Assembly (NCBI GenBank): GCA_963700065.1
Contig: CAVOWJ010000005.1
Span: 620,953 to 684,952 of the forward strand
Reading direction: 5' to 3'
Origin: an uncultured Acidobacteriota bacterium
Lineage (GTDB): Bacteria > Acidobacteriota > Vicinamibacteria > Vicinamibacterales > JAKQTR01
DNA length: 64,000 nucleotides
Shown here: positions 38,331 through 44,968 of the stretch, in pieces
Position numbering within the stretch: the first letter of the stretch is position 1
Layout of the letters: every line of letters starts with the position of its first letter
Notes under the pieces: model-generated
Seen by the model: the letters and a program-made list of their open reading frames with translations, nothing else
Database searches by the model: none
Told to the model about the DNA's origin: nothing
Made by a program: the position numbers and the translations under genes

Positions 38331-39728
38331 GTGGCTCCTGGCTCCAAGACCGTCCTCGTCGTCGACGACGACGAGGGGATGCGCGACACGCTGACGGCCA
38401 TCCTGCGCCGCGACTACCGCGTGCTGCGCGCGGCCACGGGCGAGATCGGGCTGTCCATCCTCGACCGCGAAACCGTGGACGTCGTGCTGCTCGACGTGCG
38501 GCTGCCGGGCATGGGCGGCTTCGAGATGCTGCAGGAGATCAGGGAGACGCAGCGCCTCGTCGAGGTCATCATGATCTCGGCCATCAACGAGGTCGAGACC
38601 GCCGTCCGCGCCATGAAGCTCGGCGCCTATCACTACATCACCAAGGACTTCGAGTACGACGCCGTGCTGTCGCTCGTCCGCAACGCGTCGGACCGCACCG
38701 ATCTCCACCGCAAGGTGATGTCGCTGAGCGCCCAGGTGGCCGACGATCGCGACCGGCCGTTCATCACGGGCTCGAGCCGCGCGATGCGCGAGATCCTCGA
38801 CCTGGTGCGCAAGGTGGCCGGCCTCGACACGACGGTGCTCATCCTCGGCGAGAGCGGCACCGGCAAGGAGCTGCTGGCCCGCATGATCCACCGCGAGTCG
38901 GCCCGCGCCGACGGCCCCTTCATGCCGGTCAACCTGGCGGCCATCCCCGCCGACCTGGTCGAGTCGGCGCTGTTCGGCCACGAGAAGGGCTCGTTCACCG
39001 GCGCGGTGCGCCAGCAGATCGGGAAGTTCGAGCTGGCCGACCGCGGCACGCTGTTCCTCGACGAGATCGGCGAGCTGAAACCCGACGTGCAGGCGAAGCT
39101 GCTGCGCGCGATCCAGGAGTCGGAAATCGAGCGGGTCGGCGGCGGCCGCCCCATCCGCGTGAACCTGCGGATCATCGCGGCCACCAACGTCGATCTCGAG
39201 AAGGCCGTGCGCGACGGGCGCTTCCGCGAGGACCTCTACTACCGGGTCAGGGTCATCCCGATGCAGGTGCCGCCGCTGCGCGAGCGGATGGAAGACCTCG
39301 ACGCGCTGGTGACCTTCTTCCTGGGCCGCTACAACACGAAGTTCAGGAAGCAGGTGCTGGGCATCGAGCCGTCCGCCATGGAGGTGCTCGGGGCCTACCC
39401 GTGGCCCGGCAACGTCCGCGAGCTCGAGAACCTGATGGAGCGCCTGGTGGCCGTCAGCGAGGGCGACTGGATCGGCGACGAGGACCTGCCCTACGAGTTC
39501 CACCTGGCGAAGCTCGTCAGGCCCGACGAGACGACCGAGGGCCTCTTCGACCGCGCCTGCGAGACCTTCGAGCGCAACTTCATCCTCAAGACGCTCGAGC
39601 ACGAGCGCTGGAACGTGACGGCCGCGGCCCGCACGCTGGGCATGCCGCTCAGCACGCTCAAGTTCAAGATGGACCGCCTCGATATCCGCCAGATCGCCCG
39701 CAAGCTCCGCCGTGCAGGCCCGGCCTGA
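38331..39728 (+). CDS. Sigma54-dependent response regulator (NtrC family: REC, AAA+, Fis HTH)
   Basis: [15 protein letters not shown]...[13 protein letters not shown]. Walker A GESGTGKE. Sigma54-contact loop [11 protein letters not shown]-terminal [26 protein letters not shown] start with GAAAGGA upstream. Confidence 0.9.
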
Positions 39729-40002
39729 CCCTTGCAGGCTGCGTGGGTCAGCGACGAATCTGAACCTTGGGGGCGTCGCAGAAACTGCAACGGGTGTCTC
39801 GCTCTGATGTGGCAGCTGCCGCCACGTGTCTCCATTGTGGACACCGACGCGCACGGGCGTCTGCTGGCAGGATGCACCCACCATTCACGAGGCGCTTTCG
39901 CGTCATAATCGCTGCGTTCAAAGGGTCTCGTCGGCACGCGGCGCGCGGCGGCCCGCAGGGTCCGGCCGCCCCGGCCGGGGCTGCAGCCCCTCCCGCCGCC
40001 GC

Positions 40003-43184: not shown

Positions 43185-44968
43185 GCACGCTGCGCGTCCG
43201 CTTCGCGCTGATGCTCGCCACGGCCGCCGTGGTGCCGCTGCTCACGTACGGGGCGGTCTCGGTGTACTCCCTGCGCGAGAGCACGCGGCGCACGGTGACG
43301 GAGGGCAACATCAACCTCGCGCGGCAGGTGGCCGAGCAGGTGCGCCGCTATGTCGCCACCAACCTGCAGATTCTCGACGCGCTCGCCGCCGATCTCGACA
43401 GCACGGGGCTCGATGCGGCGCAACAGGATCGGATTCTCAAGAACTACGTCCTCCGCTTCCCGGAGTTCCGTGAACTGACGGCGTTCGACGCCGCAGGGCG
43501 CCCCGTGGCCACCAGCCGGCTGGGCGCGCCAGGCGTCCGCATCCCCGGCGCCGACGCGGTCGACCTCTACGGCGCCCGGATGTCGCCGGTGCACGTCGAC
43601 GACGACCTCCTGCCCACGGCGCTCGTGGCCGCGCCGGTCGGCCGCGGCGGCAGGCAGGCTGGCTGGCTCGTCGGCGAGTTCAGCATCGAGGAACTGTGGC
43701 GCCTGACCGGGCGCATCCGCGTGGGCGCGTCGGGCTACGTCATGGTGGCGGACCCGCGCGGCGGCCTGCTGGCCCACGGCAATCCCGAGCAGCGCTCGAC
43801 CGTTGCGCGCGGCGAGAGCCTCGCCGGTGACCCGATCGTGAAGGCGCTGCTCGGCGCCGCGCCCGGGACGCCGCAGGTCGTCGAGCGGCAGGGCCGGGGC
43901 GGCGTGCCCGTGGTCGCGGTCGGCATCCGCGTGCCGGAACTCGGCTGGATGGTGCTGGTCGAGCAGCCCGCCCGCGAGGCGTTCGCCGCGGCGCGCCGCC
44001 ACGAGCGTGATCTCATCGCGGCCATCAGCCTCGCGCTGCTCATCATGCTGCTCGCGGGCCTGGTCTGGGGCCGGTCGCTCATCCAGCCGATCCGCGAGAT
44101 CATCCGCGGCACCGAGGCCATCGCGGACGGCCGGCTCGACGAGCGCGTCCGCGTCACGACGAAGACCGAGCTGGGGCGGCTCGGCGAAGCGTTCAACACG
44201 ATGGCGGGCCGCCTCGGCGAGCTCCAGGAAGACGTGCGGAAGCAGGAGCGCCACGCCATGTTCGGCCGCGTGGCCGCGGGCCTGGTCCACGACCTGTCGC
44301 ACCCGTTCAAGAACGTCCAGAACAACTGCCGGCTCGTCGTCAAGATGCACGACGACCCGGAATACCTCGAGCTGTTCAAGCGCACGACCGACCGCGAGTT
44401 CGCCCAGGTCAAGCGCGTGTTCGAGGATCTCCGCAACATCGCGCGGCCGATGCCGATGGAGCGCTTCCCGCTGGACCTGAACAAGCTGGTGTCGGACGTC
44501 GCGGAGTCGATGCGCGCCAACGCGTCGGCCGCGGGCCTGACCATCGACCTGGATCTCGCCGCTGACACCCTCTACGTCGAAGGCGACATGTTCGCCCTGA
44601 GCCGCGTGTGCCGCAATCTCATGATGAACGCGATCGAGGCCACCGCGCCGAACGGGCGCATCACCCTCAGCACCGCCTCCGAGAACGGGCGCGCCGTGCT
44701 GCGCGTCGCCGACACGGGCTGCGGCATCCCGGCCGACCGGCTCGACACGATGTTCGAGGACTTCAATACGACGAAGCGCCAGGGCCTCGGCCTGGGCCTG
44801 GCGATCACGAAGAAGATCGTGGATCAGTCGGAAGGGACCATTGCCGCCACGAGCGTCGTGGGCGCGGGCACGACCTTCGCCGTGTCGCTTGCACGGGCCC
44901 CAGCGCCGGCGGAGGGAATTCCCGGCGAGCCTGGCGGCGAGCCGGCCGACTGGCCGGCGCCGGTGTAG
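43181..44968 (+). CDS. Sensor histidine kinase (TM, Cache-like periplasmic domain, TM, HAMP, HisKA, HATPase)
   Basis: The ATG overlaps the SBP stop (ATGA 43181-43184). HAMP IQPIREIIRGTEAIADGRLDERV. H-box AAGLVHDLSHPFKN. N/G boxes NLMMNAIEA, VADTGCGI and GLGLGLAI. Confidence 0.9.
   Translation: MSTLRVRFALMLATAAVVPLLTYGAVSVYSLRESTRRTVTEGNINLARQVAEQVRRYVATNLQILDALAADLDSTGLDAAQQDRILKNYVLRFPEFRELTAFDAAGRPVATSRLGAPGVRIPGADAVDLYGARMSPVHVDDDLLPTALVAAPVGRGGRQAGWLVGEFSIEELWRLTGRIRVGASGYVMVADPRGGLLAHGNPEQRSTVARGESLAGDPIVKALLGAAPGTPQVVERQGRGGVPVVAVGIRVPELGWMVLVEQPAREAFAAARRHERDLIAAISLALLIMLLAGLVWGRSLIQPIREIIRGTEAIADGRLDERVRVTTKTELGRLGEAFNTMAGRLGELQEDVRKQERHAMFGRVAAGLVHDLSHPFKNVQNNCRLVVKMHDDPEYLELFKRTTDREFAQVKRVFEDLRNIARPMPMERFPLDLNKLVSDVAESMRANASAAGLTIDLDLAADTLYVEGDMFALSRVCRNLMMNAIEATAPNGRITLSTASENGRAVLRVADTGCGIPADRLDTMFEDFNTTKRQGLGLGLAITKKIVDQSEGTIAATSVVGAGTTFAVSLARAPAPAEGIPGEPGGEPADWPAPV

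Follow-up and report, generated by a model that had tools for sequence, protein, structure and literature searches.

Geopeptides and other systems related to the locus

The closest named relative of the gene block described here is the geopeptide system, which NCBIfam defines, as a hypothetical equivalog, by a precursor model (TIGR04229) and a maturase model (TIGR04280). The block occupies positions 38331–44968 of a 64,000-nucleotide stretch of DNA (the window, G000:C5:620953–684952) from the 5.5-Mb, 15-contig, 87.5%-complete genome (G000) of an uncultured bacterium of the order Vicinamibacterales, and the closest public relatives of the window are metagenome-assembled genomes (MAGs) of Vicinamibacterales, Acidobacteriota. 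It encodes a sigma-54-dependent response regulator, a radical S-adenosylmethionine (rSAM) maturase of the type that acts on peptides made by the ribosome and modified after translation (RiPPs), a predicted 30-residue precursor, a periplasmic solute-binding protein (SBP) and a sensor histidine kinase. An earlier note on this DNA had not recognised the wiring as a characterised system. Literature searches agree, returning no description of geopeptides or of this wiring (all matches to “geopeptide” were to “gageopeptide” lipopeptides, and subscription literature lay outside the search). A named relative does exist, however, the locus being a sub-threshold cousin of the hypothetical geopeptide system.

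The likeness to geopeptides extends from the enzyme to its surroundings. The best-scoring NCBIfam family for the maturase is TIGR04280, “geopeptide radical SAM maturase”; the enzymes share the same build of RiPP recognition element (RRE), rSAM and SPASM domains and fall in the same tree clade. Geopeptide precursors likewise have about 30 residues, an IVVLxKG-type leader and a Cys-containing core, and in the Geotalea/Geobacteraceae loci the neighbouring genes encode a TonB receptor, a periplasmic binding protein and a HAMP kinase, joined in some of them by a sigma-54 regulator. In contrast, the precursor gene lies 3' of the maturase gene in the window and 5' in geopeptide loci, the core contains a single Cys (CPW...) instead of CC, and the binding protein belongs to family 5 (SBP5) rather than to PF04392. 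The window locus also lacks a TonB receptor, and its maturase carries an insertion of about 30–50 residues with extra Cys. Family calls were based on NCBIfam equivalog cut-offs and Pfam thresholds. The maturase fragment in the window scores 247.3 bits with TIGR04280 and the intact enzyme of a close relative (P0001) 260.7 bits, against a cut-off of 400; other members of the clade reach 250–324 bits. The window peptide gives no match to TIGR04229 at E ≤ 10 (cut-off 30 bits), whereas the Geotalea peptide scores 40.5 bits. Membership in the geopeptide family was therefore rejected, the maturase and precursor models both being below cut-off.

Among solved structures, those of thioether-forming maturases of the CteB (SCIFF), PapB and QhpD type match best, in sequence as well as in fold. 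They share with the window maturase an N-terminal RRE, two sets of auxiliary-cluster Cys residues and a Cys-containing substrate. Identity in the structural alignment is only 17–18%, the substrate motif differs, and the scores with the PapB (112–114 vs. 340 bits) and SCIFF (80 vs. 425 bits) models are far below the NCBIfam cut-offs. Streptide and the other RaS-RiPPs of streptococci (shp/rgg) offer a parallel at the level of the operon, where a short peptide modified by an rSAM/SPASM enzyme is tied to a dedicated signalling circuit. These systems are Gram-positive, with a separate SHP pheromone, Opp import and the cytoplasmic receptor Rgg, whereas the window system belongs to a diderm and combines a periplasmic SBP with a two-component kinase and a sigma-54 activator; here it is the RiPP itself that is the candidate ligand.

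Periplasmic binding proteins that lack a transporter and are encoded beside a sensor kinase are known from LuxP/LuxQ, AioX/AioS/AioR and TorT/TorS, and the output of AioXSR is also an RpoN (sigma-54)-dependent regulator. Their ligands, however, are autoinducer-2, arsenite and trimethylamine N-oxide, their SBPs are of other families, and they are not known to be coupled to a RiPP operon. Methanobactin operons combine a short Cys-containing precursor with the TonB transporter MbnT, the orphan SBP5-type protein MbnE, an exporter and a dedicated regulator. This list of parts is matched by the distant relatives found here. The window system differs in using an rSAM/SPASM enzyme in place of MbnBC and a kinase with a sigma-54 regulator in place of an extracytoplasmic function sigma factor, and its locus lacks both receptor and exporter.

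The biosynthetic part of the locus is ordinary for a RiPP. Interesting and uncharacterised is its conserved coupling to a periplasmic SBP/kinase/sigma-54 circuit, joined in the relatives by a TonB receptor and an exporter. Peptide signalling through a dedicated receptor is textbook biology in Gram-positive bacteria, but bacteria that have an outer membrane rarely show it; to our knowledge, almost nothing is known of cell-cell or self-sensing biology in the Acidobacteria, which are abundant in soil. The comparative data define a phylum-spanning family comprising precursor, maturase, exporter, TonB receptor, binding protein, kinase and sigma-54 regulator, of which the only named member is the geopeptide, itself hypothetical. 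Knowing how the cross-link is built and what the SBP binds would extend the RiPPs by a class and could also reveal a new receptor logic, in which a two-component sensor detects a RiPP with the help of an SBP.

Candidate promoter, maturase and predicted precursor peptide

Sequence evidence strongly supports a single operon, preceded by a predicted sigma-54 promoter, that comprises the genes for the maturase, the 30-residue precursor, the SBP5 protein and a dCache-HAMP kinase. The earlier note had described, from the letters of the sequence, a block of five co-directional genes with an NtrC-family activator, a GG-N10-GC element, an RRE-like rSAM/SPASM enzyme of RiPP type, a short ORF with a strong Shine-Dalgarno (SD) sequence, a family 5 SBP and a Cache/HAMP kinase; profile matches together with the sequence bear out each of these features and its position. 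All genes of the block are on the + strand. The G+C content of the window is about 70%, so that long spurious open reading frames (ORFs) are plentiful, and the genes were therefore defined by profile matches and homologs.

The first gene (38331–39728) encodes a response regulator with a receiver domain (Response_reg, PF00072, 94.3 bits), an AAA+ domain (Sigma54_activat, PF00158, 230.8 bits; AAA_lid_14, 85 bits) carrying the GSFTGA loop, and a Fis-type helix-turn-helix (HTH_8, PF02954, 40.7 bits). This composition places it among the NtrC-family bacterial enhancer-binding proteins. It scores below every NCBIfam equivalog cut-off, including those of AtoC, NtrC and ZraR, the best being AtoC (433 vs. 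714 bits). Orthologs of 64–71% identity are encoded 5' of the maturase in most relatives, and this adjacent NtrC-type regulator is the obvious candidate for the activator of the operon.

The gap of 316 nt between the regulator and maturase genes contains the promoter candidate CGGAACGCCCCTTGCA (40003–40018, + strand), which fits 9 of the 11 positions of TGGCAC-N5-TTGCA, with GG (40004–40005) and GC (40016–40017) 10 nt apart, and which precedes the ATG of the maturase gene at 40045 by 27 nt. Taken from the window alone the match is not significant (12 matches with at most 2 mismatches vs. 11.9 expected), so its weight comes from position and conservation in orthologous loci. A search for YGGNAY-N5-TTGCW (score of at least 9/11) in the 200 nt 5' of the maturase gene found such an element in the correct orientation in 19 of 20 orthologous loci, as compared with 2.8% of 1000 random 200-nt pieces of the same loci and none of the 20 reverse complements. 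The sequence hallmarks of a sigma-54 promoter are thus present and conserved at CGGAACGCCCCTTGCA, where a promoter is predicted; rpoN is encoded in the genome (450.8 bits). The sequence around it is poorly conserved with the exception of two palindrome-like sites, TCGCAGAAACTGCAA (39776–39790) and GTGGCAGCTGCCGCCAC (39809–39825), located about 180–240 nt 5' of the -12 element. The matching sites in L009 and L011 read TTGCA-N5-TGCAA-like (alignment A2), and both palindromes are candidate activator-binding sites. A simple scan for sigma-70 promoters and terminators gave nothing informative within the block.

The maturase gene (40045–41488) is split by an extra G at 40287/40288, which is discussed below. 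The product belongs to the radical SAM family (PF04055, 62.9 bits vs. a threshold of 29.5), with the CxxxCxxC motif CNFACDYC invariant in alignment A1. The C-terminal half aligns with the SPASM region of CteB and contains seven Cys residues, invariant in A1 (C369, C388, C426, C429, C435, C439 and C455), along with an invariant G383; no separate match to a Pfam SPASM domain was obtained at E ≤ 0.01. After TIGR04280, the next NCBIfam families are CefB, TIGR04463, FlmE/OhkG and PapB. A search of solved structures with a 16-member family profile gave CteB (5WGG) as the closest (E 1.6e-39), followed by TigE (8VPO), and Foldseek ranked CteB (E about 1e-16), TigE, ChlB, SuiB and the anaerobic sulfatase-maturating enzyme (anSME) highest for an AlphaFold2 model (mean pLDDT 79.5, pTM 0.80). 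The N-terminal domain of this model, with pLDDT of about 90, has the beta3-alpha3 topology of an RRE (strands 7–12, 17–21 and 26–30; helices 32–42, 53–64 and 72–87); its sequence aligns weakly with the N-termini of TIGR04463 (E 7e-4) and FlmE/OhkG (E 2e-3) maturases, and there is no match to Pfam PqqD. On the strength of the family scores, the structural matches to CteB and TigE and the RRE topology, the maturase is a RiPP-type RRE/rSAM/SPASM enzyme, and its nearest characterised relatives form thioethers. A possible place of the system in the sacti-/ranthipeptide class is suggested by the resemblance to CteB, PapB and QhpD and by the conserved precursor Cys.

The insertion that sets the acidobacterial clade apart is of 30–50 residues and lies between the rSAM core and SPASM (residues 293–341, window about 40920–41070). 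It contains extra Cys (…GGGCM…SGCSPCDSC…), is modelled as disordered (pLDDT <50) and is absent from other members of the clade. In two genomes of one genus, the maturase ortholog contains a single in-frame TAG (G125:C3:239127–240533 and G198:C20:124336–125742).

Immediately downstream, the gene for the 30-residue peptide MKVKVLKGAKKAPSREMCPWMITVPPESGK (41485–41577) is preceded by AGGAGGAG with the SD sequence AGGAGG, and its ATG overlaps the TGA of the maturase gene as ATGA. Gene callers annotate a 30-residue ORF at the same place in relatives with 81–97% maturase identity. In 18 orthologous loci, an ORF of 29–48 codons follows the maturase gene, with an ATG start, an SD sequence 5–10 nt upstream and a G+C content at third codon positions (GC3) of 0.66–0.97. 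The products begin with M-[KR]-[IVL]-x-[VI]-[IVL]-K-K and have a Cys near residue 18, mostly in CPW, acidic residues 5–9 positions past the Cys and then a basic K/R tail; in Vicinamibacterales the motif reads MKIxVIKKA…CPW…. The window peptide has a single Cys, and its leader resembles the IVVLxKG leader of the CC-motif geopeptide-type precursors encoded beside the maturases of the wider clade. By these sequence features the ORF is a genuine, conserved predicted precursor, and a spurious short ORF was rejected, since start, SD sequence, GC3 and motif are conserved in the 18 loci.

Two loci depart from this arrangement. L012 (9616–9862; 62% maturase identity) contains two tandem precursor genes, and the regulator is missing upstream. 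In L022 (about 3380–3475), from a short-read groundwater MAG, the precursor ORF MKI*VVRRASN*KPAGYCDLWVDGPAMNKK has two in-frame stops and may be a decayed copy or a misread frame.

Sensor genes and their linkage to the maturase across phyla

The fourth gene (about 41679–43184) encodes a member of the family 5 SBPs (PF00496, SBP_bac_5, 205 bits vs. 32.4). Its nearest equivalogs are of the NikA, GsiB and CntA type, and it is closer to NikA and CntA than to OppA, although it remains below the equivalog cut-offs (NikA 100 vs. 393, Opp5A_nikA 100 vs. 600, CntA 63 vs. 800). The N-terminal hydrophobic stretch ends in a Cys within an atypical lipobox (AFAC). The start is uncertain: the long ORF opens at GTG 41535 inside the peptide gene, the gene callers of relatives place it where GTG 41685 lies in the window, with only some 9 residues ahead of the Cys, and TTG 41679 is another candidate; ahead of the RR-containing n-region RAWLRRSVPRLAVAGALSAFAC, no canonical in-frame start is found (window 41535–41690). 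The flanks of the SBP gene encode no ABC permease and no ABC ATPase, and the only Opp-type permease match of the genome is on another contig; it is an orphan SBP. Among orthologs the SBP is the most divergent component (31–48% identity, vs. 45–71% for the kinase, regulator and maturase), which fits co-variation with the variable peptide core and is not specific evidence for it.

The TGA of the SBP gene (ending at 43184) overlaps the ATG of the kinase gene at 43181 as ATGA. The kinase (43181–44968) has a periplasmic dCache domain (dCache_1, 49.6 vs. 45 bits) between two transmembrane segments, followed by HAMP (56.2 bits), the H-box GLVHDLSHP and HATPase_c (82.3 bits), an architecture of the Cache/HAMP type; HisKA was not detected by Pfam. 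Every Vicinamibacterales locus has a full-length ortholog after the SBP; outside the order, the kinase of L028 is 38% identical.

A single-copy maturase ortholog (E ≤ 1e-60) was found in 96 of the 201 sampled Vicinamibacterales genomes, representing 51 of 95 genera. Some families have it in every or almost every member, whereas others lack it altogether. The order regulator-maturase-peptide-SBP-kinase is kept within Vicinamibacterales. This conservation is weak evidence for functional linkage, because the whole region is syntenic there.

Decisive is the comparison beyond the order, for which the 80 genome loci that scored best with the maturase-family profile were collected and classed by tblastn and Pfam. 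The wider clade outside Vicinamibacterales is represented by 31 loci (L028–L058) from an unclassified lineage (STL-UBA2), Planctomycetota, Omnitrophota, Auribacterota, Nitrospirota, Desulfobacterota, Geobacteraceae and others. An SBP is encoded beside the maturase in 23 of the 31, with varied gene orders and orientations; seven of these are SBP5 and 16 belong to the unrelated family PF04392. A TonB-dependent receptor is present in 21 of the 31 loci, a HAMP kinase in most and a sigma-54 regulator in many. Loci of the SBP5 type also carry a half-transporter ABC exporter (L030, L034, L037, L040 and L045) or a transporter of the major facilitator superfamily (MFS; L028). By contrast, none of 35 more distant SPASM loci (L059–L093) has an SBP or a TonB receptor. 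The neighbourhood test suggested in the earlier note thus did not refute its reading: the linkage of maturase and peptide to an SBP, a kinase and a sigma-54 regulator is found again in many phyla, with rearranged gene orders and even with a non-homologous SBP.

A maximum-likelihood tree from a quick search groups every SBP-linked maturase in one clade (SH-aLRT 89). Within it, a subclade of Vicinamibacterales, L028 and L041 (SH-aLRT 97) consists of members that all have an SBP5 and a downstream single-Cys precursor. The row L015, which is in the wrong frame and forms a very long branch, is to be disregarded. Together, these sequence comparisons strongly support an association of maturase, SBP, kinase and regulator that is ancient and specific to this maturase clade.

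Sigma-54 elements were found 5' of the precursor gene or operon in L034, L037 and L041. Elements at other locations were also observed. In Nitrospirota loci (L043:13411–13881, L046:13973 and L048:6002–6842), a near-consensus element lies just past the regulator gene of the module; in L043 it would drive a receiver-domain protein, and in L048 a LuxR-type regulator with autoinducer-binding and GerE domains together with a PAS kinase. The module may sit atop a regulatory cascade. In L028, where the MFS gene is placed between those for the SBP and the kinase, a perfect TGGCAC-N5-TTGCA beside the regulator (L028:3911, minus strand) would drive, on the opposite strand, a 1086-residue PAS hybrid histidine kinase (L028:539–3799).

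Proposed circuit and competing readings

We give roughly even credence to the reading that the locus is a RiPP operon resembling those of geopeptides, with an envelope sensor of its own hard-wired to it. In such a circuit, the leader beta-strand MKVKVLKG would dock on the RRE of the maturase, and the enzyme would cross-link the conserved Cys18 to another residue of the peptide, most likely through a sacti- or ranthi-type thioether to a partner 4–9 positions downstream. In the relatives, the product would leave through the operon-encoded ABC or MFS exporter and return through the TonB-dependent receptor to the periplasm. There the orphan SBP would capture it and signal through the Cache kinase to the regulator, which, with RpoN, would turn on the same operon, so that peptide, maturase and receptor would rise together in positive feedback. 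An exporter paired with a TonB receptor, as relatives have it, is typical of a molecule that the cell secretes and later takes up again, which favours the peptide as the ligand; linkage as such supports a functional module and does not prove what the sensor binds. Cell-cell signalling and recapture of a metal-loaded peptide are both compatible with this loop.

A broader proposal, which we put forward tentatively and with some doubt, is that diderms of many phyla, including Acidobacteriota, Omnitrophota, Nitrospirota, Desulfobacterota and Planctomycetota, use rSAM-modified peptides as their own signal, with export, TonB-dependent re-entry, capture by an SBP and readout by kinase and sigma-54. 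It would amount to a RiPP-based autoinducer for outer-membrane bacteria, and the version that about half of the Vicinamibacterales have would be streamlined and inherited vertically.

Several observations weigh against a self-sensing circuit. The maturase of the window is frameshifted, and the adjacency of its genes within Vicinamibacterales is not independent evidence, given the synteny of the whole region. Exporter, TonB receptor and leader protease are absent from the Vicinamibacterales block. The earlier note had pointed out the lack of an exporter and a leader protease, and in the window neither block nor flanks encode an ABC permease, ABC ATPase, exporter or leader protease; the relatives do have an ABC or MFS exporter and a TonB receptor. 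The ABC-exporter matches elsewhere in the genome are generic and lie about 100–500 kb away on C5 or on another contig. No homolog of the TonB receptor type of this system was detected in the 87.5%-complete genome at E ≤ 1e-10, and no PF04392 binder was found in it. The peptide has no recognisable cleavage site, and the second precursor of L012 has Tyr where others have the conserved Cys (…VYPWLVDVPPDDDAK). The chemistry proposed for the cross-link is an extrapolation from enzymes that share 14–18% identity in structural alignments. In Nitrospirota, finally, the best sigma-54 elements are located 3' of the regulator gene and would drive other regulators, not the precursor.

This last observation, along with the lack of an exporter in the window block, speaks for a reading in which the peptide is only an output, made in response to an unrelated external cue that the SBP, kinase and regulator sense, with no autoinduction. 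The cue could be an oligopeptide, an opine- or nickel-type chelate or a product of another organism, and the peptide, for example, an antimicrobial or an intracellular effector. The nearest equivalogs of the SBP do bind small chelates and peptides, and regulator genes often lie beside biosynthetic operons, which need not mean self-sensing. However, the precursor operon of relatives also holds the exporter and the TonB-dependent receptor, the sensor genes are part of the predicted sigma-54 operon alongside the precursor, and the linkage survives the exchange of the SBP for one of an unrelated family. We consider such a one-way arrangement possible, if rather unlikely.

Decay of the locus in this strain, with a real frameshift, a maturase pseudogene and a non-functional module, appears distinctly unlikely. 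The earlier note had called for a 1-base correction near 40287, and the cause could be placed at 40287/40288, where one extra G gives TCGGTAC in place of the TCGTAC of the relative L007. Residues 1–81 of the maturase are read in one frame and residue 82 onward in the +1 frame, whereas the intact P0001 (480 residues, 97% identical) reads RAALES followed by YFAAFR across the break. The site is a GG dinucleotide and not a long homopolymer, which, like the split of the gene after codon 81 itself, would be in line with a genuine lesion. Against this, the extra G is the sole indel over 6.9 kb (from the 3' end of the regulator gene through Smr) relative to the 97%-identical L007, both halves of the maturase keep 96–97% protein identity to the relative with no further lesions, and most of the orthologs sampled in the order can be aligned over their full length in one uninterrupted frame. 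For the last reason a programmed frameshift was also rejected.

A scan of GC3 periodicity for same-strand frame switches without a stop found this site and 124 others genome-wide, about one per 32 kb of coding sequence. Applied to related loci, the scan gave 3 switches in 108 kb of long-read-style contigs, a similar rate, and 0 in 81 kb of short-read-assembled sequence, a loose calibration that bounds the false-positive rate only at about one per 27 kb; at two of the three long-read-style switches, the tblastn alignment is split as well. Indel errors are probably numerous in the assembly, and the frameshift in the maturase gene is itself, with good confidence, an assembly indel rather than decay. 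In view of the approximately 125 frame switches, other “frameshifted” genes of G000 call for caution.

A functional variant of the hard-wired sensor, different from cell-cell signalling, is metallophore-like recapture, in which a secreted Cys peptide would chelate a metal, be re-imported via TonB and bind to the SBP, and the kinase would report the loaded peptide. The parallel with methanobactin operons, the C or CC motifs of all precursors (CC in most relatives), an SBP nearer to NikA and CntA than to OppA, and the TonB receptors in 21 of the 31 distant loci are consistent with this function. It is nevertheless improbable, as the peptides of Vicinamibacterales have a single Cys and their loci neither receptor nor exporter, an importer of the inner membrane is not linked, the neighbourhood contains neither a metal-responsive regulator nor a metal enzyme, and the downstream outputs in other phyla are regulators.

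That the enzyme is no RiPP maturase at all, and the short ORF spurious, is hardly credible: SPASM enzymes do include anSME, PqqE and MftC, and anSME is among the structural matches, yet the short ORF with its leader and Cys is conserved over 18 loci and across phyla, and the N-terminal RRE is typical of peptide maturases. An anaerobic sulfatase maturase, which the earlier note had named as an outcome that would speak against its reading, was rejected on its TIGR03942 score (59.4 vs. 349 bits) and on the lack of a sulfatase gene in the flanks; a cofactor synthase for pyrroloquinoline quinone or mycofactocin was rejected on scores and on the lack of PqqB-F or Mft genes there.

The module is surrounded by housekeeping genes. 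Upstream, on the minus strand, are those for E2/E3 of a 2-oxoacid dehydrogenase, and downstream follow HU, QueF, Smr and an M14 peptidase. These surroundings suggest that the module belongs to core physiology and not to a sporadic antibiotic cluster. An MFS_3 transporter (EntS-like “secretion effector”) is encoded about 7 kb 5' of the module (30919–33063), with no synteny with the module in relatives. The M14 protein (46149–48862), encoded about 1.2 kb 3' of the kinase gene, is a large zinc carboxypeptidase with a signal peptide. A distant M14 paralog is encoded divergently, directly 5' of the maturase gene, in L012 (4659–7415), L018 (5053–7641) and L025 (5071–7650), three loci in which the regulator is missing at that place. 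Since the precursors have Lys/Arg-rich tails, the M14 peptidase could trim the C terminus of the precursor.

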